Assembly (NCBI GenBank): GCA_011620345.1
Contig: WOZJ01000037.1
Location: 1 to 38,958 of the forward strand
Origin: Nitrospirota bacterium
Lineage (GTDB): Bacteria > UBA2233
Direction of reading: 5' to 3'
DNA: 38,958 nucleotides
Each line of letters begins with the position of its first letter. Position 1 is the stretch's first letter. The notes beneath the pieces were generated by a model. The model was not told the DNA's origin, did not search any database, and saw nothing but the letters and a program-made list of their open reading frames with translations. Positions 9,779 through 38,846 of the stretch are shown in pieces. Position numbers and translations under genes: made by a program.

Positions 9779-10664
9779 GGCGTTTTTGGGCAAGCTCTCG
9801 ATTGAGAGGGGCTACAGTAACCATACGATTGCCTCATACCAGTATGACCTGCAGGCATTCCTTGCGTTTTTGCGGGCTTACAGCCCCGACGAAAACCCGG
9901 TGGAAGCGCTAAAAACCCCGGAGGCGTTTGAAGCGTACTTTGCCGAGTTGACTAGCCAAGGCGCCGCTCCAAGCACGATGCTCCGTAGAAAAAGCTCTCT
10001 AAAGCGCTTTGTAGGTTTTCTCATCGAACAGGGCCTTGCAGCGGAAAACCCGCTTGAAGGTATCCGGGTGGCAAGACTCAAGCGGGCCTTGCCCCTCTTG
10101 CCCTCTAGGGAGCAGCTCGAAGCATTCTTTAAGAGGCTTCCCCCTCCTTGTGGACCCCTGGAAGTGAGGAACCGTTCTATCGCCGAGTTTTTCTATGCCG
10201 CAGGGCTCAGGGTAAGCGAGCTGACCGCGCTAAGGGTAGGCGACGTCCAAGATGATCCGCCGCACCTTAAGGTTTTTGGCAAGGGAAACAAAGAACGCGT
10301 CGTACCCCTTGGAGAAGTCGCACGGAAGAGCCTGGCGGCTTACCTGCAGCTACGCCCGTCATTCCTCAAGGGCCGCTCCGACACGCTCTTTTTGGGGGCG
10401 AGAGGGAAAGCCATGAGTCGGCAGGCGGTTTGGAAGGTGATCAAGCGGTTCGCTTTCTTTTGGCCGGAAGATGATGCGCTTTACCCTCATCTCCTTCGGC
10501 ACGCCTTTGCAAGTCACCTTTTGGAGGGAGGGGCCGACCTCCGAACGGTTCAAACGCTTCTGGGGCACAAAGACATCCAAACGACCGAAATCTACACGCA
10601 CATCGGCTTAGAGCACCTAAGGAAAGAGCTTGTCAAGGCGCACCCAAGGAAGCCATGCGGATAG
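9756..10664 (+). CDS. xerD: Tyrosine recombinase XerD/XerC
   Basis: Catalytic R-K-H-R-H-Y: GLRVSEL, GKGNKER, HLLRHAFASHLL, LLGH, TTEIYTH; N-terminal ERGYSNHT; core-gene context. Confidence 0.88.
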   Translation: MRLEIALEAFLGKLSIERGYSNHTIASYQYDLQAFLAFLRAYSPDENPVEALKTPEAFEAYFAELTSQGAAPSTMLRRKSSLKRFVGFLIEQGLAAENPLEGIRVARLKRALPLLPSREQLEAFFKRLPPPCGPLEVRNRSIAEFFYAAGLRVSELTALRVGDVQDDPPHLKVFGKGNKERVVPLGEVARKSLAAYLQLRPSFLKGRSDTLFLGARGKAMSRQAVWKVIKRFAFFWPEDDALYPHLLRHAFASHLLEGGADLRTVQTLLGHKDIQTTEIYTHIGLEHLRKELVKAHPRKPCG

Positions 10665-13306
10665 TAACCACCCACGTTTACGCCGATTTTGACGCGCTAG
10701 CCAGCGCTACGGCTGCAGTCGCCCTCTATGCTGAAGCATGCCTGTTTATCCCAAAACCCAAGGCCAGGAATGTCGAGGCATTCCTTAAAGAGCATCCAGA
10801 GTTTGCCCCAAAAGAGGTGCTCTTCGACCAGATCGATCCGAACGCTATCGAAGGCGTTGTCGTTGTCGATACTTCCGACGTTTCACGCCTCGGCGAGCTT
10901 GGCCCGTGGATCGAGCAAGCAGGGCCACCTCTTGTGTTCATCGACCATCATCCCCATCCCAAGGGCTTACCCCCTTCCCTTAAAACAGACATACGCGCCC
11001 CTGTTGGGGCTTGCAGCAGTCTTGTCGTCCGCCTTTTAAAAGAAAAAGGCCTATTGATCGGCCAAACCTTGGCGAACCTCCTTTTGCTCGGGGTTTACGA
11101 AGACACGGGCGGGTTGATGAATGTCTCGACTACGCAGGAAGATTTTGAGGCCTGCGCTTGGCTTCTTGGGCAAGGCGCAAGGGTAGGGTTTGTCCGTTCG
11201 ATCTTGGCAAGAAGCCTTACGCTCTCCGAGCTCGAAATCTTGCACCGCCTTAAGTCCGCAGCGCGGTTTATCCAGCTAAACGGAAGCCGGCTTTTGCTTT
11301 CTCACGCCGAAGTCGTTGGGCATGAAGGGGAGCTGAGCCACCTTGTCCAGGAAATACTAGATATTAGCCATGCCAGTGCCGCCATTGCGATCTTTGAGTG
11401 TGAGGGCCGGATGCTCGTCGTAGGTAGGAGCGTAAGCGATACCGTCCGGCTAGACGGGCTTTTTGTCGAGCTTGGCGGCGGGGGCCATCCTACAGCGGCA
11501 AGCGCCTCTTTGCCTGGGCAGACGCTGGTGGATTCCAGGGTTCGGATCGAGGCGCTTGTCCAAAAGCACCTTGTCAAGGCCATGCGGGCCGAGGAGGTTA
11601 TGTCCGCCCCCCCGATCTCCGTCCTTTCCGGGCAGCAGATCGAGGAAGCCCTCTTGACTATGAACCGCTACGCCGTAAACGGGCTCGTCGTCTTAGATCC
11701 CACCGGCCGTCTTGTCGGTCTATTTACGCGAATGATTGCGGAAAGGGCGCTCTATCACGGCCTCCACGGAGCCCATGTTGCAGATTTCATGATCACCGAA
11801 TTCGAAACCATCTCACCCTATGCGCCGCTCGACGAGGTAGGAGAGCTATTGGTACGTACAAGACAAAGGCTACTCCCTGTATTGCGGGATGGCCAGGTTA
11901 TCGGTGTTGTCACCCGAAAGGATTACCTAAGAGAAATGCTCAAACGGACGCGTGAACGGCCCGTAGACGCCCAAACACAAGAAGTGACGAAGCAGGTCAA
12001 GTCTCAGGCCGGAAAGCATCTGCCAGAAATCGTACGGGCAGTGTTCCTCGAGGCGGGACGGCTTGGCTTTGAGCTTGCCATGCCGGCCTACGCCGTAGGA
12101 GGTTTTGTGAGGGATTTGTTGCTCGGAACGCCCACTCTGGATTTCGACATCGTCGTGGTTGGGGACGGGCTTCGGTTTGCAAGTAAGCTCGCGGAACGTC
12201 TGGGGTGTAAAATGCGTCTTCACGAGGCTTTTGGAACGGCTTCACTCTACGTACGTCCGGACGTCAAGCTCGATATCGCGACTGCCAGGATAGAATCCTA
12301 CGAATATCCAGGTGCCTGGCCGAAGGTTGTTCGAAGCACGCTCAAACAGGATTTAGCAAGGCGCGATTTTACGGTGAACACGCTGGCGCTGGATTTGAGG
12401 CCCGAACGCTTCCTGGAGCTTGTGGACTTCTATGGGGGGCTTACGGACTTAAAGCATCGGCTTATTCGGGTATTGCATAACTTAAGCTTGGTCGAAGACC
12501 CAACCCGCGTGTTCCGGGCTTACAGGTTTGCGCTCCGGCTGGGGTTTAAGCTGAGCAAGGAAACAGAAAGGCTCATCAAGAAAGCGCTCGAACTAGGGTT
12601 CGTCGGCAAACTCGAGGGCGGGAGGGTTCTTAAAGAGCTGGGCCTCATCGCCTACGAGCCTAAGGCGATCGAGATCGTCGAGAAGCTAGGCTCGGAGGGG
12701 GTGTTGAGGGTCGTTGCGCCCGAACTGGATATTACACCCGAAAAAAAGCGCACGCTTCAAGGTTTAGGAAATGCCATCGTATGGTTTAGCTACAGCTTTC
12801 CAGATCAACATGTAGATACGTTGGCCCTTATCCTAGCCGCCCTTTTATGGGGAGAGAGGCCTGAGGCAAGGGGGGCTGCTTTACGGAGGCTTCAATCCCC
12901 CCCCCAGTTGCAATGCCTTGTCCAAAAGGTGTTTGAGCATGCAAGCGGGGCGCTGACAAGGCTTGAGTCGGCCAAAGGGGATGCCGTAGAAATTGACAAA
13001 GCACTTCGTGGGGTTCCCAAGGAGACGAGCTTGTTCATTATGGCGCTTACAAAGAACGAAGACGTTCGCGAGCACGTTGTCCATTATCTTCTCGTCCTCT
13101 CAAAGGTTTTTCCGGAGGTTCGAGGGAAGGATCTCGTTGCGCTCGGGTTCTCCCCATCCCCAAAAATCGGGAAAATCCTTGAAACCTTAAGGGCGCAAAA
13201 ATTACGAGGCAGGCTTTTGACCAAGCAAGAAGAGCTTTCTTGGGTCCTAAAACATTTCTGCCACGAGCTTCCTGACCTAACATGCGAAAAAAATATGCTA
13301 GGATAA
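10655..13306 (+). CDS. cca: tRNA nucleotidyltransferase with DHH/DHHA1 and CBS domains (CCA- or A-adding)
   Basis: H..ADFDA, IDHH, GGGGHPTAAS (DHH/DHHA1); CBS pair; VGGFVRDLL..DFDIVV, DLARRDFTVN, EDPTR. Confidence 0.9.
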   Translation: MRIVTTHVYADFDALASATAAVALYAEACLFIPKPKARNVEAFLKEHPEFAPKEVLFDQIDPNAIEGVVVVDTSDVSRLGELGPWIEQAGPPLVFIDHHPHPKGLPPSLKTDIRAPVGACSSLVVRLLKEKGLLIGQTLANLLLLGVYEDTGGLMNVSTTQEDFEACAWLLGQGARVGFVRSILARSLTLSELEILHRLKSAARFIQLNGSRLLLSHAEVVGHEGELSHLVQEILDISHASAAIAIFECEGRMLVVGRSVSDTVRLDGLFVELGGGGHPTAASASLPGQTLVDSRVRIEALVQKHLVKAMRAEEVMSAPPISVLSGQQIEEALLTMNRYAVNGLVVLDPTGRLVGLFTRMIAERALYHGLHGAHVADFMITEFETISPYAPLDEVGELLVRTRQRLLPVLRDGQVIGVVTRKDYLREMLKRTRERPVDAQTQEVTKQVKSQAGKHLPEIVRAVFLEAGRLGFELAMPAYAVGGFVRDLLLGTPTLDFDIVVVGDGLRFASKLAERLGCKMRLHEAFGTASLYVRPDVKLDIATARIESYEYPGAWPKVVRSTLKQDLARRDFTVNTLALDLRPERFLELVDFYGGLTDLKHRLIRVLHNLSLVEDPTRVFRAYRFALRLGFKLSKETERLIKKALELGFVGKLEGGRVLKELGLIAYEPKAIEIVEKLGSEGVLRVVAPELDITPEKKRTLQGLGNAIVWFSYSFPDQHVDTLALILAALLWGERPEARGAALRRLQSPPQLQCLVQKVFEHASGALTRLESAKGDAVEIDKALRGVPKETSLFIMALTKNEDVREHVVHYLLVLSKVFPEVRGKDLVALGFSPSPKIGKILETLRAQKLRGRLLTKQEELSWVLKHFCHELPDLTCEKNMLG

Positions 13307-13338
13307 CTGTCATCAGCATTTGGCCTGGAGGGGTGGGC

Positions 13339-14049
13339 ATGAAGAGACGATTTTGGGCGGCATTCTTTGTGGCATGGGCTATGTTCGGCGCTCAGGCAGG
13401 GCTTGCAAGAAACCAGGGTGGGGAATCGTTTCGGATTACAGGCTTTTATACGACAGGGGAGGAAGGAGTTACCGGCATGATCACGGGGCCCTTGTCGCAG
13501 ACGCTCACCATTCCCTCGACGCTGACAACGCAAGCACCCGAATTCGTTCCGCTGCCCGGAGGGGGAGGGGTAGGAGTAGGGGTTCCCGTCGGTAGCAACT
13601 TGGTCATTCCTCCAGAAACACTGGAGCAATTACGGGTGACGAGGCCGGAGGTCAGCGTCGGGCTCGAGAACAACATGATTAATCAAGGGATTACACTCGA
13701 GCGTTTTCATATGCGCTACGATATAGTTACAGAGGATGGCGAGCTCTTTTCGGGGTTTGTCCCGGATTGGGACTACTACGCGACGGTCTATCTTCCCCCT
13801 GCTCAGCCTACGCAGCCCGGCCAAGAATCTGGCATTCGCACGCAGTTGGGGGGGCAAGAGCAGAACCGTTCGCTGACGACTGTCCTGTTGGTCGGCCCCC
13901 AGACCGTGCGCTTCCTGCTCGATCACCTAAGCGATCTACCCGGGTTTCCGTTTGAGATGATCGTCCGCGTCAAGTCTTTCGGGCGGGGGGACAACGGCAA
14001 GACGTACGAGACGCCGGAAGCGGTCATGACAATCCTCTGGATTGCTTAA
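13339..14049 (+). CDS. Uncharacterised exported protein
   Basis: GGAGGGG RBS; Sec-type signal MKRRFWAAFFVAWAMFGAQAGLA; Thr/Gly/Pro-rich, beta-rich mature part; in operon order. Confidence 0.75.
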   Translation: MKRRFWAAFFVAWAMFGAQAGLARNQGGESFRITGFYTTGEEGVTGMITGPLSQTLTIPSTLTTQAPEFVPLPGGGGVGVGVPVGSNLVIPPETLEQLRVTRPEVSVGLENNMINQGITLERFHMRYDIVTEDGELFSGFVPDWDYYATVYLPPAQPTQPGQESGIRTQLGGQEQNRSLTTVLLVGPQTVRFLLDHLSDLPGFPFEMIVRVKSFGRGDNGKTYETPEAVMTILWIA

Positions 14050-18004: not shown

Positions 18005-18029
18005 CAATTTGTTTTTCAAGGGGGTGAGC

Positions 18030-18761
18030 ATGAGGGCGCTCGGTGTTGTTACCCTGACGGTATTTTTGTTGACCTTCCAGTTTGAGAGCGCGCCCGCCAT
18101 CGAGCTGGATCGCGCAAGGCTTCCTTACTACGGAAGTTTTCCGTTCGAGCGTATCGGAAAAACGGGGGATTCTTACGGAGAAAAGCAATTGCTTTCCTTG
18201 GGCGACGAGCTCATGCTCACCCTCGAAGCGGGAAAGACCCTCAAGCAAGGCCTTCCTTACCTTGTTGCCAAGACCCAAGCCCCATGGAAAGCTTCGTTTT
18301 ACGAGCCTATAGCCGTTGTCCGGCCTCTGTTCAAGGATGGAAGGTCGGCTTACGTCGGAGAGGTTGTAGAAATCTTCGGCCTGCTCGATGCAAGTCAAAC
18401 TTATGGCCTCTACGACATCGGCTCAAGACCTAGGCGTATGCAAGTACAGTCTACTGTTTCAAGCCATACTGCCGAAGGGAAGGTGGAAGTCGTGTACGGC
18501 TCGTCAAGGACAGCCTCGGTCGGCCAGTATGTGGGTGCCACGCTAAGTGAGATTCCAAGGCCTTCTCTCGATCCAGGAACGAAGGTATATTTTTATTCCA
18601 AGCCGTCTTGGTGGAAAGAAGCGTTCAGACGCTCCAAGCCACCTAAGGTGTACGCAGAAGGGCTTGTGGTTTTCATGGTAGAAAAAAAGGCTACGATCCT
18701 CCTGACCCATGGCGAGAATGTAGTCAAGCCTGGGGCCAGGGTTACGACGGTTTTATACTAG
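18030..18761 (+). CDS. Exported protein upstream of dprA (possible LysM-less TsaP-like protein)
   Basis: GGGGG RBS; signal peptide; C-terminal beta pattern G.VVF..EKKATILL....VVKPGARV; position directly upstream of dprA. Confidence 0.6.
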   Translation: MRALGVVTLTVFLLTFQFESAPAIELDRARLPYYGSFPFERIGKTGDSYGEKQLLSLGDELMLTLEAGKTLKQGLPYLVAKTQAPWKASFYEPIAVVRPLFKDGRSAYVGEVVEIFGLLDASQTYGLYDIGSRPRRMQVQSTVSSHTAEGKVEVVYGSSRTASVGQYVGATLSEIPRPSLDPGTKVYFYSKPSWWKEAFRRSKPPKVYAEGLVVFMVEKKATILLTHGENVVKPGARVTTVLY

Positions 18762-23980: not shown

Positions 23981-25978
23981 ATGGAGCCCATAGAGAGCGT
24001 AACCAGGGAGGTGTTCCTCCGGTTTTCCTTAGCCGAAAGAATCGTTTTCTACGTGCTAAGCCTGCTGACGATCAGCGTCTTTGTGTACGGGTTCTATGCC
24101 CAAGCGAGACGATGGATGCAAGGCAGGGATGCGCTGTTTGCATGGAACCGCATTCCCGAAAGACTCTTGAGGGTTTTTAGTCAAGTCCTTGGACAGGCAA
24201 AGCTGCTCAGAGAATCCTACAGGGGGTTTGCGCACCTTCTGGTCTTTTGGGGGTTCGTGGTGTTGTTCATCGGGACGGTGATCCTGACCATCGATGAGGA
24301 CACACCGCTTCGCTTCTTCTACGGGGACTTCTATCTTGCATACTCTTGGACCTTAGATCTTTTCGGCCTTTTCCTGCTTGGCGGGCTTGTGCTGTTCGGG
24401 GTTCGGCGTTACGGACTCCACCCTAAGGGATTAAGCTACAAATGGGACGATCACTTCTTGTTCTGGATGCTCCTGCTTTTGGGCATTACAGGGTTTTCAA
24501 CGGAGATCCTAAGGATCGCAGGAGGTGGCGTGGCGTTTCAGGCCTACCCCGAGTTCGAGCGTGTGTCCTTCGTCGGGTTTAGTGCGGCCAAGATGCTTCG
24601 AGGGGCAGACCCCGCCCTTCTCCACGGCCTTCATAAGGCCTCATGGTGGGTTCACGGCCTCCTTTCGCTCGGGTTCATCGCAGTCCTTCCTTACACAAAG
24701 GCCTTTCATTTCTTCAGCTCGCTCTTGAACGTCTTTCTTGCCCCGTTTGAAACCAAACAATACGGGATGCCGAGCTATATCGACTTGGAGAACGCCGAGT
24801 CTATCGGATACAACACCCTAAGCGATTTTACTAAACAAGAGCTCTTAAGCCTGGACGCCTGTACGCGGTGCGGCCGCTGCCAAGAGGTCTGCCCTGCCTA
24901 CGCTACCCAAAAGCCGCTTTCCCCTAAGGGCGTTGTTCTCGATCTAAAGGGCGCGATGCTTGAAGGTGATGGCGAGGATAAGCCCTTGGCGGGCGGTGTC
25001 ATTACGGATGACGTGCTTTGGTCGTGCACGACTTGTAAGGCCTGCGTCGAGGCATGCCCTGTAGAAATCAATCAGATGGGCCTTATCCTTGAGCTTAGAC
25101 GCTCGCTCGTGTTCGAGATGCAAACCCCATCTACGCTCGGTCAAAGCCTCAAGAGAACCACCAACAGCGCCAACCCCTGGGGGCTTCCGAACGAGGATCG
25201 CCTAGCTTGGGCCAAGGGGCTTTCCGTCCCCCTTGCCGCGGAAACGGAGGGGGGCTTCGAATGGCTATACTGGGTCGGTTGCAGTGCTTCTTTCGACCCG
25301 AGGAACCAAAAGATTGCACGCTCGATGGTCAAGCTTTTGGAAGCATCGGGCGTAAACTACGCCGTCTTGGGGCCGGAAGAAAAATGTACGGCGGAATGGG
25401 CAAGAAGGGCCGGAGAAGAGGGCCTATTCCAAATGAACACGCTAGAGAACATCGAGACGTTCAAGCGCTACAATGTCTCGAAGATCTTGACCCATTGTCC
25501 TCACTGTTTAAACACGCTTAAGAATGACTATCCGCAGTTCGGGTTTCAAGCCCAGGTGGTTCACCACAGCACGCTCTTAAGGGACCTGCTAAAGCAAGGC
25601 CGGCTCAAGCTTGGGAAGAAAACTCCTGAATCGCTCGTTTTTCACGACTCGTGCTACCTTGGCAGGTACAACGGAGTGTACGACGCTCCGCGCGAGTTGC
25701 TTCACACCGTGGCCAAGTCGCCCATAAGGGAAATGGAGAGGCGTAGGGAAAAGTCGTTCTGCTGCGGCGGCGGAGGCGGGCTTTCATGGATGGAGTTCGA
25801 CATCGGCAAAAAGATTAATCACGAGCGGATCGAAGAGGCGGCTGCTACGGGAGGAAAGACTCTTGCCGCAGCATGCCCGTTTTGTGTGTTCATGTTCGAC
25901 GACGCCATCAAGGTCAAGAACCTCGAGGAGGAGATAAAGGTCAAGGACCTATCCGAGATCCTCGTCGAATGCCTCTAG
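23981..25978 (+). CDS. fadF: Membrane heme b / Fe-S / CCG-domain oxidoreductase (FadF / ETF:menaquinone oxidoreductase type)
   Basis: N-terminal TM region with His ligands (AHLLVFWGF, WWVH, KAFH); CTRCGRCQEVCP and CTTCKACVEACP; CCG domains (WVGC, CPHC, HDSCYLGR, FCCGGGG, ACPFC); follows etfBA. Confidence 0.88.
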   Translation: MEPIESVTREVFLRFSLAERIVFYVLSLLTISVFVYGFYAQARRWMQGRDALFAWNRIPERLLRVFSQVLGQAKLLRESYRGFAHLLVFWGFVVLFIGTVILTIDEDTPLRFFYGDFYLAYSWTLDLFGLFLLGGLVLFGVRRYGLHPKGLSYKWDDHFLFWMLLLLGITGFSTEILRIAGGGVAFQAYPEFERVSFVGFSAAKMLRGADPALLHGLHKASWWVHGLLSLGFIAVLPYTKAFHFFSSLLNVFLAPFETKQYGMPSYIDLENAESIGYNTLSDFTKQELLSLDACTRCGRCQEVCPAYATQKPLSPKGVVLDLKGAMLEGDGEDKPLAGGVITDDVLWSCTTCKACVEACPVEINQMGLILELRRSLVFEMQTPSTLGQSLKRTTNSANPWGLPNEDRLAWAKGLSVPLAAETEGGFEWLYWVGCSASFDPRNQKIARSMVKLLEASGVNYAVLGPEEKCTAEWARRAGEEGLFQMNTLENIETFKRYNVSKILTHCPHCLNTLKNDYPQFGFQAQVVHHSTLLRDLLKQGRLKLGKKTPESLVFHDSCYLGRYNGVYDAPRELLHTVAKSPIREMERRREKSFCCGGGGGLSWMEFDIGKKINHERIEEAAATGGKTLAAACPFCVFMFDDAIKVKNLEEEIKVKDLSEILVECL

Positions 25979-26638
25979 TTCGAGCCAATACTTGCGAATA
26001 TCCAAAATTTCGAAGCCTTGGGCCTCCAGTGCTTCCCGAACAGGCAGGGGGTTGATTGTGGCAAGACGAAGGAGAAGGACAAGCTGAGGAGATTCCTTTT
26101 TAACCATTTCGAACAGTAGGCTAACGACCTCGACGCCCAAGCGCCTTGCCGCTTCAAGAACGCGAATCGTATCAGAGGTTTTATCCGCAACGAGTACTTC
26201 GATCCTAGAGGTATTTTTGTTGACCCCAAGAACGCATTCAAACGCCCTTAAGAGGTCTGTCTTGGTAAGGATCCCTAAAGGCCGGGCATCTTCGTCGACG
26301 ACGGGCAGCCCGTTGAACCTGTGGGTGTTGAAGATACTCAGCGCATCCTCAAGCGTATCGGTTGGGTAGAGCGTGACAGGGTCTTTTGTCATAAACGAAA
26401 CGACGGGCGCGGCCTCCATCAAATCCTTAAGCGTTTTGCCCTGAAAGCTAGACATGTAGACCAAGGAAGTCTTGGCATCGCGTAGGTCCCTATCGGAAAA
26501 GATGCCTACTAGCTTACCCGCCTCCTGAACCATGATTTGGTTTACTTGATGGGTTTTCATTAGCTCTTCGGCCTTCAGCAAGGCGTCTTGCGTGTTGATA
26601 CATACGGGGGTAGAAGTCATCCAGTTGAAAACAAACAT
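25949..26638 (-). CDS. acuB: CBS-pair + ACT-like domain protein (AcuB-like)
   Basis: MFV..WMTS.P, LVGIFSDRDLRDA, FMTKDPVT, GLPVVD, GILTKTDLL; C-terminal ACT-like SRIEV...LLRLAT.....VREALEAQGF; GAGGAG RBS. Confidence 0.8.
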   Translation of the reverse strand: MFVFNWMTSTPVCINTQDALLKAEELMKTHQVNQIMVQEAGKLVGIFSDRDLRDAKTSLVYMSSFQGKTLKDLMEAAPVVSFMTKDPVTLYPTDTLEDALSIFNTHRFNGLPVVDEDARPLGILTKTDLLRAFECVLGVNKNTSRIEVLVADKTSDTIRVLEAARRLGVEVVSLLFEMVKKESPQLVLLLRLATINPLPVREALEAQGFEILDIRKYWLELEAFDEDLG

Positions 26639-26686
26639 TGCTCGCTCCTCTTCTCGTCTTGCATCTTCTCTGCATTTTGTTGTTTG

Positions 26687-27646
26687 CTAAAGAGCATCCA
26701 CAAGCCCTTCGACGTAGGCCATGCAAAGGTTTCCGAGTTCTGGAAGGAAATAACCGCCCTCGAGTACGGAAAGCACTCTGCCCTTGGAGAATGCCCTGGC
26801 GTATACCCCTATCCGCCTGCCAAAATGCTCATAGGCTTTTTCGGTGAAGTTCAGATGAGCCAAGGGGTCGTGCTCGTAGGCATCGAACCCTGCGCTTACG
26901 AGGACGAAATCCGCTTTGAAAACCTCCGTTATCTGCTCGAGGGCATAGTCGAACGCCGGCAGCGCTCGGTCATCGCCCGTAGATGGGGGCATGGGGACGT
27001 TGAGCGTAAAACCCTTTCCGGTTCCGATGCCAACCTCACTCCGCCTCCCTGTCCCTGGAAACAGGAAGCTCGGATGTTCGTGGATGCTGAAGTAGAAGAC
27101 GCTCGGGTCTTCCTCGAAAATATGCTGGGTGCCATTCCCGTGGTGGACGTCAAAGTCGACAACGAGAACCTTCTCTATACCGTAGCGGCTTTTGAGGTAT
27201 CTTGCTGCGATCGCGATGTTGTTGAAGTAGCAAAACCCCATTGCCTTGGTCCGCTCGGCATGGTGTCCTGGGGGGCGGATTGCACAAAACCCGCTATCAA
27301 TCTCTTCGGCCATGACTGCTTCAATGTGCTTTAAGATCCCTCCGACGGCTTGAGAAGAGGCTTCGAAGCTTCTTTCCGAAATGCAGTTGTCGTAAGAATG
27401 AAAGTAGCTCAGCCCACTTTGGCAGGCGCTCCGGAATTCCTCGATGTATTCCTTGGAGTGTACGAGTTGGATTGCGTCCATGTCTGCCGAGTCAGCGTGA
27501 AACCGTTTAAGCATCGGGCCGAACCGGTGGGAATCAAGACCGGCTTGAATCGCTCGAATCCTTTGAGCGCACTCAGGGTGCCCTTCCTCGGTTTCATGGG
27601 CCTCATAGATTGGATCGATCAAAAATCCAAACCGCTTTGGATCCAA
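26687..27646 (-). CDS. Zn-dependent histone deacetylase-family protein (AcuC/APAH-like)
   Basis: HPEC, RPPGHHA, GFCYFNN, DFDVHHGNGT, SAGFD, VLEGGY all intact; TTG start with AAGGAG RBS. Confidence 0.93.
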   Translation of the reverse strand: MDPKRFGFLIDPIYEAHETEEGHPECAQRIRAIQAGLDSHRFGPMLKRFHADSADMDAIQLVHSKEYIEEFRSACQSGLSYFHSYDNCISERSFEASSQAVGGILKHIEAVMAEEIDSGFCAIRPPGHHAERTKAMGFCYFNNIAIAARYLKSRYGIEKVLVVDFDVHHGNGTQHIFEEDPSVFYFSIHEHPSFLFPGTGRRSEVGIGTGKGFTLNVPMPPSTGDDRALPAFDYALEQITEVFKADFVLVSAGFDAYEHDPLAHLNFTEKAYEHFGRRIGVYARAFSKGRVLSVLEGGYFLPELGNLCMAYVEGLVDAL

Positions 27647-27660
27647 CGCGATCTCCTTAA

Positions 27661-28431
27661 TTAAGGGGTAAATGTGCAGATGTGAAAATCTTTCCCCACG
27701 ACCTTGACCATTTTGACATCCCGAAAGGGTTCTCCAAGAATGCCGTCGTAGATAGCCCAGCTACGGCCTACGGGTGTTGCTTCCATTCCTTTACGACGAA
27801 AGGGGGTGGATCCGTCAAGCTGCTCATAAAGGTCTCCCCCCGCATGGAATCGTGCGTTGATCTCTTCCATCCACGCCTTTCGTGTAACGTATCCAAACCC
27901 GTGACGTTCGTAATGGATGGCGTTGTGGTAGCCCAGAGGATAGGTAAAGATCATTTGGTAGCTTAGTTGTTTTGCAAATGTCTCCAGATGCAGCTTGAAC
28001 ACCTTGAAAAGTCCTAACCCTCTTCGAATTTGGAAAGGGGCAAGCCCGGCCTCCATAGCCTTAATCTCTTCTTTAATGTTGCGCCTTACGGTTCCAAAAA
28101 TTGTTTTTTTACCTAACTCATCAATGTCAAGAAAAAAACGTTCGCTATCCGGGTCGTTGATCATGATGAAGGAAAGTTCCAGTTGGTGGGTTGGGGTATG
28201 CTCAAGGTCCAACTCAAGAATACAGTCCTTATCGCTTAATCTTCTCTTTACCCGGATTGAAACCCAGTAATGAGATTCGGGGTAGTAGAAATGGACAGCC
28301 CTCTCTCCATGCTCGTTGAGTAATGTTTTTTTAGAAATATTATATCTTTCAAATATTTTGTCGGGAATAAGGAGCTTCAGGAGATCTTCACGTTCTTCGA
28401 CCTCAAGACGAGAGAGCTCTAAGATAGACAC
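27661..28431 (-). CDS. Uncharacterised protein, probable divergent GNAT-fold acyltransferase
   Basis: GTG start with AAGGA RBS; 14 nt gap to the HDAC gene; PFQIRRGLG (motif A-like) and NAIHYERHGF (motif B-like). Confidence 0.6.
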   Translation of the reverse strand: MSILELSRLEVEEREDLLKLLIPDKIFERYNISKKTLLNEHGERAVHFYYPESHYWVSIRVKRRLSDKDCILELDLEHTPTHQLELSFIMINDPDSERFFLDIDELGKKTIFGTVRRNIKEEIKAMEAGLAPFQIRRGLGLFKVFKLHLETFAKQLSYQMIFTYPLGYHNAIHYERHGFGYVTRKAWMEEINARFHAGGDLYEQLDGSTPFRRKGMEATPVGRSWAIYDGILGEPFRDVKMVKVVGKDFHICTFTP

Positions 28432-28522
28432 GGATGATCTTCCTTTGGCTCGACTATTTGATAATATTGTTTCATAGAATTCATAAAAAAACTACAATGA
28501 TTTCTTCGAATTTTTCGATGAA

Positions 28523-28551
28523 TTGACATGTTTTGTCCAACAACATATAGT
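28523..28551 (+). promoter_or_regulatory. sigma70 promoter of the prs operon
   Basis: TTGACA-17 nt-TATAGT. Confidence 0.7.
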
Positions 28552-28557
28552 AATACA

Positions 28558-28706
28558 GATTGAGGTGCTTGCTGCCAGTCTGAATACCCCCCTGAAGGCC
28601 GACCACATTGCGTTCAATGGTGGTTCGGGTCCGGGTATATGCTTACAAATTAGGTGCTGTACGGGTTTTTGTGTAAATGATTTCCTAAGAAGGGGCAAGT
28701 CTTGGG
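28558..28706 (+). other. Long structured 5' leader of prs (candidate cis-regulatory RNA)
   Basis: ATACCC(28584-89)/GGGTAT(28633-38) enclosing the hairpin CCGACCACATTG-cgtt-CAATGGTGGTTCGG (28599-28628). Confidence 0.4.
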
Positions 28707-37588: not shown

Positions 37589-38846
37589 CAAAAATTGCCG
37601 TAAGGCGTTATCCTTCCCTGCATTATCCCGCAAGAAATGATGATATTTAATTATGGCAACACTAACCAAAACACTGAAACTTCCGTTTCTGAGGCTAAAC
37701 CGAGTCAAGGCCGATGCGTTTCTGCGTCTGGAACGGTTGAATACCGAGGTTGCCAACACCATCCTGTCGATGCCGAAAGCAGATCAACGTAAACTGACCA
37801 GTAAATCGTTCGCGTCCGTAGAAATAGGGTCGGCATGGATAAACCAAACTATCCGCAATGCCACCGCTAAAACTAAGGTAAAGCGCTTTCGACGCCTTCC
37901 GCTCGAAACCAACAACCAGAACTGGACGCTACACAGCGTCGGCGACACGTTCAGCATCTCGTTCGGGTTGCTGCGGAACATCAGAAAACGGATTCCCCTG
38001 GAAGTACACAGCGCGTCCCATCGGGACATACTGATCAAATTGCAAGATGGTTCCGCCAAGGCGGGAAGTATTAAGCTCTTACGATCGAGCCGTGGAATCT
38101 GGTATGCCCTGATCTCAGCGTCGATGGACGTTCCCGACGCACGAGATTCAGGCCGCTGGATTGGTGTCGATCGGGGGCAGAACATCCCTGTCGCGGCCGC
38201 GACCCCGGACGGTCCGGTAGTTTTCTGGAAAGCGGCGAGAATCCGGCATGTCCGCCGGGTATTCGCCGAACGCCGAAAGAAACTCCAGTCTATGGGGAAG
38301 CACAACGCAATCAAAAAACTCAATCACCGCGAGCAGCGCATTGTCACGCACCTCAACCACTGCATCAGCAAGGATTTGGTTGCACTAGCCAAGCGTCTGA
38401 ACGCCGGAATTCGTTTAGAAGACCTTTCCGGTATCCGAAATTCCGCTAAACAACGGAAATCAACCAAGGCGGATGCCGGAAAGAATCGAGACTACTGGCC
38501 GTTTTATCAACTGGAAACGTTTGTACGCTACAAGGCCCTGGCAGCGGGCGTGGCGGTGGATGAGGTTTGTCCTCGCTACACCAGCCAGTCGTGCGCCCGC
38601 TGCGGTGCCGTTAACAAACGCCATAAACACGCCTACGTCTGCACACGTTGCGGATACAAGGCGCACGCCGATGCCAATGCCGCGATGAACATCCGGGACT
38701 GGTATGGGATGTGCTGCCCGTTGGTTCTTGATGCTCCAACGGGCGGGCCGCATGAACCGGCCCTGAACCCAGTACGCCAAGCTGCCGGGCAACCGGCAGC
38801 GTAACAAGAATGGGAATCCCCCGGCTTTAGCCGTGGGGAGGTTCAA
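37589..38846 (+). mobile_element. IS200/IS605-family element carrying only tnpB (IS608-like ends)
   Basis: Left TTAC|CAAAAATTGCCGTAAGG (target tetranucleotide 37585-88); right end GAAT-CCCCCGGCTTTAGCCGTGGGG-AGG-TTCAA ending at 38846; no tnpA; left boundary less certain than right. Confidence 0.75.
37653..38804 (+). CDS. tnpB: RNA-guided endonuclease TnpB
   Basis: RuvC D-E-D triad intact (IGVDRG, IRLEDL, HADANAAMNI); YTSQSCARCG...CTRCG zinc finger; 383 aa. Confidence 0.93.
   Translation: MATLTKTLKLPFLRLNRVKADAFLRLERLNTEVANTILSMPKADQRKLTSKSFASVEIGSAWINQTIRNATAKTKVKRFRRLPLETNNQNWTLHSVGDTFSISFGLLRNIRKRIPLEVHSASHRDILIKLQDGSAKAGSIKLLRSSRGIWYALISASMDVPDARDSGRWIGVDRGQNIPVAAATPDGPVVFWKAARIRHVRRVFAERRKKLQSMGKHNAIKKLNHREQRIVTHLNHCISKDLVALAKRLNAGIRLEDLSGIRNSAKQRKSTKADAGKNRDYWPFYQLETFVRYKALAAGVAVDEVCPRYTSQSCARCGAVNKRHKHAYVCTRCGYKAHADANAAMNIRDWYGMCCPLVLDAPTGGPHEPALNPVRQAAGQPAA

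Follow-up and report, generated by a model that had tools for sequence, protein, structure and literature searches.

Which protein supplies the modification that a Zn-dependent histone deacetylase (HDAC) homologue might remove is the question raised by a three-gene operon on contig WOZJ01000037.1 of a Nitrospirota bacterium (assembly GCA_011620345.1, GTDB lineage UBA2233), analysed here over its positions 1 to 38,958, a stretch of 38,958 nucleotides referred to below as the window. The operon encodes, in this order, a hypothetical protein that we call X, the HDAC homologue and an AcuB-like protein. The acuABC/acsA system of Bacillus comprises AcuA (a GCN5-related N-acetyltransferase, GNAT), the CBS-ACT sensor AcuB and the class I deacetylase AcuC, and an earlier reading of the window, made from the sequence alone and called here the original prediction, took the operon for a switch of this kind with X as a divergent GNAT-like writer. 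Bacteria are known to acylate lysines enzymatically through no more than a handful of writers, and a known partner is lacking for many Zn-dependent deacetylases. We think it rather likely that X represents a hitherto undescribed family of enzymes, protein lysine acyltransferases which silence adenosine monophosphate (AMP)-forming acyl-coenzyme A (acyl-CoA) ligases broadly, beyond acetyl-CoA synthetase (Acs), a reading based on fold class, conserved motifs, gene links and co-occurrence.

By its modelled fold X is a member of the GNAT superfamily that belongs to no named family. No family in Pfam, NCBIfam, PADLOC or PHROGs matched X at cut-off, nor did any Pfam model, GNAT models included, match the 78 aligned members of the family; a weak Pfam match to DUF5770 and the PDB sequence matches of X were discarded as noise. 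The structure model has a predicted local distance difference test score (pLDDT) of 94.3, and the matches it gave were to GNAT-fold proteins only, as the original prediction had expected: in a wide structure search these filled all 50 rows listed, most of them assigned by title and about 11 taken by us to have this fold. The best match is NatD (4ua3, Z 7.8, root-mean-square deviation 4.3, 141 residues aligned), and in Foldseek GCN5 comes top (E 4e-3). These middling scores arise because only about 110-140 of the 256 residues fit the GNAT core, and with a best Z under 8 the case for a GNAT fold therefore relies on the uniformity of the matched rows.

Both GNAT-like segments pointed out in the original prediction are present, the first, PFQIRRGLG, ending at 28038 and not at 28039, and the pair in this order and spacing occurs in one of 1590 stretches of 256 residues from the six-frame open reading frames (ORFs) of the host. 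Among 44 diverse sequences (X plus 43 of 54 candidates retained for coverage) the first segment has the consensus GLAPGQVRRGL[RG]L, with P132 kept in 44, Q134 in 43, R136 in 38 and G138 in 42, and it precedes a helix (142-155) in the model, a position fitting that of motif A before helix 3. GNAT motif B follows the pattern FYxKxGF, with helix 4 leading into the GF; the second segment, NAIHYERHGF, is in register with it (E175 in 44/44, G178 in 43/44, F179 in 39/44), lies where the model places a helix (168-176) and then a strand (180-183), and is flanked by Y168 (43/44) and Y181 (44/44). Residue 85, which presumably falls at the position of the GCN5 general base, is Glu in 29 and Asp in 4 of the 44 sequences. 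X carries E85 and D93 around strand 4, and no alignment to AcuA maps onto them E102, the general base of AcuA according to the available part of PMC11255334, or W140, also named there. Two conserved family-specific insertions are present, at about 93-131 before the loop and 184-236 after motif B.

Sequence similarity between X and AcuA could not be detected: comparison of the two profiles with hhalign gave 0.6%, and a sequence search of the PDB with X found no AcuA, while the AcuA profile found 9g7f at E 1e-41, which agrees with the earlier failure to recognise X as AcuA. AcuA chains are also missing from the 50 rows shown in either structure search, an absence that is no evidence. X lacks a fused nucleoside diphosphate (NDP)-forming acyl-CoA synthetase-like domain; nine longer forms of 452-489 residues were found, and those that were scanned carry a GNAT/AcuA N-terminus. 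The family is widespread in bacteria and comprises 775 homologues at 90% clustering and 195 at 50%. Fusions of X to HEAT-like repeats (511 residues) and to a DUF4032-like region (563 residues) were also seen (P0144, P0166), both as weak Pfam matches. A sister family, Y (L085:1204-2073, minus strand), gave 93.5% in hhalign against X across the two motifs; its clusters are mostly from Myxococcota and have no Pfam match, its single-sequence structure model has a pLDDT of 39.7, no longer forms of it were found, and at L085 no HDAC adjoins it.

A tight association between X and a deacetylase was found in the class holding locus L009, a Desulfuromonadales record, which we take to be the Desulfuromonadia of GTDB and from which 121 genomes at least 90% complete were sampled. 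X and an AcuC-like HDAC are present in the same 77 genomes and both absent from the other 44, with no discordant genome, although related genomes are not independent, which means that these counts show tight coupling and not the number of events. The two genes are adjacent in 69 of the 77 genomes and apart in eight, once by 3.2 Mb on one contig. The AcuA profile, which picks up the Bacillus protein at E 1e-41, found AcuA in none of the 121 genomes, and no match to the 925-residue Pat of the Nitrospirota host extended beyond residue 739, short of its GNAT domain. An acyl-CoA ligase of the PRK12583 type is present in 76/77 genomes with X as against 24/44 without it, and is no more than 10 kb away from X in six of the eight unlinked genomes (regions were fetched for seven), adjoining X in two and within a cluster of acyl-CoA dehydrogenase, hydratase and carboxylase genes in four. 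One AcuC-like gene beside X (G431:C1:1536595-1537602) has three in-frame stops and may be broken or frameshifted.

Beyond this class, neighbourhoods were surveyed in GTDB genomes for the best 80 of at least 542 X matches, a set that leans to close relatives, with family calls checked on representatives and the remaining loci assigned by best BLAST match to those. An AcuC-like (class I) HDAC lies directly upstream of X in 20 of the 80 loci, a FadD11-like (FadD-type) ligase beside it in 19 and acs in nine; acuA is divergent from X in nine and fused to it in two, where the N-termini match solved AcuA at E 4e-26 and 7e-24; the class II HDAC plus AcuB of the window type occurs in one. At L056:2895-8524 two X paralogues flank acs and are followed by another acyl-CoA ligase (X-acs-X-ligase). 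In a tree with 102 rows, after removal of one duplicate (L001 and L082 are identical), each context forms a clade of its own, with nine context changes against a minimum of seven, so that six X clades touch six different arrangements of one acetylation circuit; since the backbone is unresolved, these are clades without an order of events. The X-HDAC order of the window is shared with a genome of the same genus and with a 74%-identical metagenome relative, in a metagenome scan that yielded three loci only. Some HDAC is present in 48 of 49 X genomes outside Desulfuromonadia, a count given little weight because 9/14 control genomes also have one. The survey that the original prediction called for thus tied X repeatedly to HDAC, AcuB, AcuA and acyl-CoA ligases, and neither a non-GNAT fold, nor a lack of association with HDAC and CBS genes, nor a match to a characterised family of unrelated function was found.

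Other GNAT-like stretches were seen as well. At one acs-X locus the gene convergent to X (L031:6802-8694, minus strand) encodes a CoA-transferase that has a Pat-like stretch of GNAT sequence at its C-terminus. By eye, GNAT-like motifs are also visible in Z, an unannotated domain of about 295 residues that is fused before a class II HDAC (L121:391-2262, L120:347-2218, L119:553-2415) and is followed by a CBS-ACT-sized gene in the three loci inspected; it is present in 8/51 genomes, those whose X sits behind a FadD-type ligase, and its profile, from a three-row alignment, matched neither X nor Y. The Z-HDAC fusion and the CBS-ACT gene are possibly another writer-eraser-AcuB module.

The deacetylase of the window is intact, as originally stated, keeping RPPGHHA, DFDVHHGNG, SAGFD and LEGGY with the catalytic Tyr (PF00850, E 1e-93), and is the only HDAC in a host genome that is 97% complete. 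Among solved structures HDAC6 and HDAH-type enzymes come closest to it, which makes it class II-like, and its identification as AcuC, a class I-type deacetylase according to the accessible portion of PMC11532494, was ruled out; here the AcuABC parallel of the original prediction had to be corrected, and it is the Desulfuromonadales partner instead that matches RPD3/HDAC1-3/HDLP. The third protein is, by its sequence, a true AcuB homologue: Pfam calls two CBS domains and no ACT domain, and the ACT region assigned to it originally is covered by alignment to solved AcuB, the three best PDB matches all being AcuB (9qs7, E 4e-26) and aligned through residue 211. Its Ile195 aligns with Met189 of AcuB, and Met188/189 are described as important for AcuC binding in the available parts of PMC13121692 and PMC13039410, both of 2026, where AcuB control is described only for Bacilli and a class I enzyme. 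The same excerpts differ on the ligand: in PMC13121692 AMP promotes the inhibition of the deacetylase by AcuB and diadenosine tetraphosphate (Ap4A) releases it, while in PMC13039410 Ap4A enhances the inhibition.

We infer from these observations a cycle in which Acs and fatty-acyl-CoA ligases would be inactivated by X. This GNAT-fold protein, unrelated in sequence to AcuA or Pat, would bind acyl-CoA and, when it is plentiful, transfer an acyl group, most likely acetyl, from it to the ligase's catalytic A10 lysine. The Zn-HDAC encoded alongside X would take the group off again, and AcuB, by analogy with Bacillus, would keep this class II enzyme inactive according to the adenine-nucleotide state. 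In a stronger form, to which we give somewhat less than even credence, X would found, after Pat and AcuA, a third family of lysine acyltransferases that act on acyl-CoA ligases, unrelated in sequence to the other two, and would be the sole such writer in most Geobacter/Desulfuromonas-type bacteria, its insertions giving it a different donor or target range, with an AcuB-gated switch acting on a class II HDAC in the window; such a difference in range would explain the fusion to AcuA and the coexistence with Pat. The targets of X probably lie among AMP-forming acyl-CoA ligases encoded at other places in the genome. The host has one Acs with PKTRSGK, on contig C26, and 12 further acyl-CoA ligases, 10 of them with a P-x4-GK motif, and the A10-type lysine is kept in 32/32 ligases near X, although this residue is catalytic and its conservation is expected anyway. 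The enzymes of the adjacent fatty-acid/electron transfer flavoprotein (ETF) pathway, which had been suggested as targets, found no backing: no ETF genes are among the labelled recurring neighbours of X, in a survey that included no search aimed at them.

Besides the non-independence of related genomes and the expected conservation of the A10 lysine, several results weigh against an acyltransferase that silences ligases. Enzymatic activity and CoA binding are predictions from sequence and model. Of the P-x5-G-x-G pattern originally read into the loop, the central glycine stood and the final one did not, position 140 being Gly in 12/44 and Arg in 23/44; the loop also departs from the motif A definition R/Q-x-x-G-x-G/A (accessible part of PMC8556138), with V/I at the R/Q position. 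No structural match reached Z 8 or a Foldseek E of 0.001, the best of them being to an N-terminal acetyltransferase. In 20 of the 80 loci none of HDAC, acs, FadD and AcuA lies within 500 bp (3 of these have smpB, 17 are other). In Chloroflexota, where 15/251 sampled genomes hold X, smpB directly precedes it in 17 loci of one clade (L036, L048, L068, L091-L104); in 14 of the 16 loci from the sampled genomes X comes after smpB and the 1.5-kb flanks are free of acylation genes. The ligase reading leaves the smpB clade unexplained. Other writers coexist with X: AcuA was found in 7/50 X genomes, Pat-length ATP-grasp frames, putative Pat genes, in 6/50, and the host, in which no AcuA was found, encodes the 925-residue Pat along with two sirtuins, so that X is a second candidate writer there. 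X is accordingly not always the non-orthologous stand-in of the original prediction, with real AcuA fused to it or divergent from it in 11/80 loci and a Pat encoded in the host. Canonical Acs scored above cut-off in only 2/121 Desulfuromonadia genomes, both without X, and therefore cannot be the universal target; nine X-positive genomes hold a below-cut-off Acs relative, with up to nine candidates scored per genome. The notion that X simply replaces AcuA to control Acs was accordingly rejected as a general rule, given AcuA in those seven X genomes and the near absence of canonical Acs from Desulfuromonadia.

A complex prediction for an X homologue from an acs-linked locus (not the window copy) with the Acs C-terminal domain and CoA, in which ligands were not scored, gave weak support, at 0.34 against 0.00 for the best control (runs 0.41, 0.34 and 0.01), with 44% contact agreement and a partner pLDDT of at least 86. 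In the benchmark the mark was reached by 116/157 solved and 2/215 mismatched pairs, and 18 of the solved and both of the mismatched pairs lay at 0.60 or under; similar complexes have already been solved (4u5y, 9g7f), and likeness to them may explain the score.

Some of these points would be accommodated if X were a non-catalytic acyl-CoA sensor or adaptor that binds and tunes the HDAC, AcuA or a ligase, in the manner of PanZ and the C-terminal domain of ICL2, GNAT-fold sensors that tune their partners. An intact AcuA as fusion partner, the presence of AcuA or Pat in the same genomes and a degenerate CoA loop all fit such a role, the two large and highly conserved insertions could form a partner surface, ICL2 residues 599-744 are among the fold matches (Z 5.8), and the perfect co-occurrence with HDAC suits a direct partner equally well. 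PanZ and ICL2 have no sequence link to X, however, and the tie of X to deacetylases points to a covalent cycle; 77 genomes would hold a conserved eraser lacking a known writer, X and HDAC being present without AcuA or Pat, although non-enzymatic acylation could still supply HDAC substrates, and polar residues at the likely catalytic positions (E85, Y168, E175, Y181) are conserved. We regard a purely sensory X as unlikely.

Acylation of a small molecule such as a polyamine, an amino acid or beta-lysine, with the paired HDAC-fold enzyme as the matching amidohydrolase, is distinctly improbable in our view, as separate clades repeatedly connect X with AcuA, AcuB, acs and acyl-CoA ligases, which such a pathway would not lead one to expect. 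It draws on the tie of spermidine and small-molecule acetyltransferases among the fold matches, on the class II-like HDAC of the window, a group including amidohydrolases and polyamine deacetylases in the available part of PMC11532494, and on a KamA-type aminomutase and a second GNAT upstream at L009, although the KamA neighbour is a single observation at L009. A protein acyltransferase with mainly non-ligase targets, for example SmpB or EF-Tu, at least in some clades, would account for the smpB loci and would suit the window operon, divergent from prs-rplY-pth, as well as NatD and GCN5 at the head of the fold matches; the several AcuC substrates described in the accessible portion of PMC13039410 include an elongation factor. 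The smpB link nevertheless comes from one clade and may reflect inherited synteny, while ligases are tied to X in three or more settings (acs, FadD, PRK12583), and we hold this to be very unlikely.

Read as a ligase-silencing acyltransferase, X can be placed among known systems, and the window module would operate in the manner of acuABC, from which it is nonetheless distinct. It shares with the Bacillus genes the trio of GNAT-fold protein, Zn-HDAC and AcuB, and relatives of X stand beside or fused to real AcuA; in contrast, X has no AcuA similarity, the HDAC is class II-like, the order is X-HDAC-acuB, and prs is divergent in place of acsA, the host Acs lying on C26. In Pat/PatZ with CobB the target class and site are those proposed for X, namely AMP-forming acyl-CoA ligases and their A10 lysine (as given in the available part of PMC8556138), but X lacks the NDP-forming ligase-like domain and pairs with Zn-HDACs, coexisting in the host with Pat and sirtuins. 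Type IV stand-alone bacterial GNAT lysine acetyltransferases and, on the structural side, NatD/Naa40, GCN5 and the lysine acetyltransferase domain of Elp3 have the same single GNAT core (tied at Z 6-7.8), although X is about 100 residues longer and has conserved insertions, a non-canonical loop and no Pfam GNAT match. Novelty lies in the enzyme family and its reach and not in the logic of the switch, and a term-based search, mostly without subscription journals, supplements and locus tags, found no paper on the family. In a whole class of anaerobes that reduce metals and sulfur and lack AcuA, Pat and mostly Acs, the AcuC-like enzymes gain in X a candidate writer. X occurs also in syntroph-like and other uncultured lineages, and in anaerobes such as the relatives of Geobacter it probably turns the activation of fatty acids and acetate on and off, as a switch not described before; if this holds for the window, AcuB control would extend to a class II deacetylase.

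The three genes of the operon lie where originally placed (Table 1), separated by gaps of 14 and 48 nt and each with a purine-rich ribosome-binding site (AGGA, AAGGAG and GAGGAG). TetR/IclR-etfBA-CCG/4Fe-4S genes adjoin the operon, and the 3' end of acuB overlaps the convergent 665-residue CCG/4Fe-4S gene of the etf operon by 30 nt (25949-25978). The reported absence of acs extends to acyl-CoA ligases in general, none of which was found on the contig. No tRNA, Rfam family or stable RNA fold was found in the window or in the X-prs gap. This gap holds a weak minus-strand promoter-like site facing X (28539-28510, 9/12 consensus matches), overlapped by a strong plus-strand sigma-70-like site (28523-28551, 11/12) before prs-rplY-pth; these are consensus matches only, five being found against a mean of 2.6 in shuffled sequence.

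Table 1. Features of the X operon in the window and of its upstream region
Feature	Position	Strand	Description
Gene X	27661-28431	minus	256 aa, GTG start; divergent GNAT-fold protein of an unnamed family; predicted, probable protein lysine acyltransferase
Zn-dependent deacetylase	26687-27646	minus	319 aa, TTG start; class II-like (HDAC6/HDAH-like), catalytic motifs intact
AcuB-like CBS-CBS-ACT protein	25949-26638	minus	229 aa, ATG start
Motif A-like predicted CoA pyrophosphate loop of X, PFQIRRGLG	28012-28038	minus	residues 132-140
Motif B-like segment of X, NAIHYERHGF	27895-27924	minus	residues 170-179
AT-rich intergenic region, X to divergent prs	28432-28706		consensus scan for promoter-like sites

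In RNA data one run contained 5% of words, and one contig of 211 nt is an exact match to X, which is no evidence of expression. Elsewhere in the window the ORFs at 13282-14049 and 18009-18761 have no Pfam match, a nucleotidyltransferase of the DHH-CBS-polyA polymerase type is encoded at 10655-13306 (plus strand), and an ORF of 383 residues after dnaB (37653-38804, plus strand) carries a Cas12f1-like TNB domain and is probably a TnpB-type gene.

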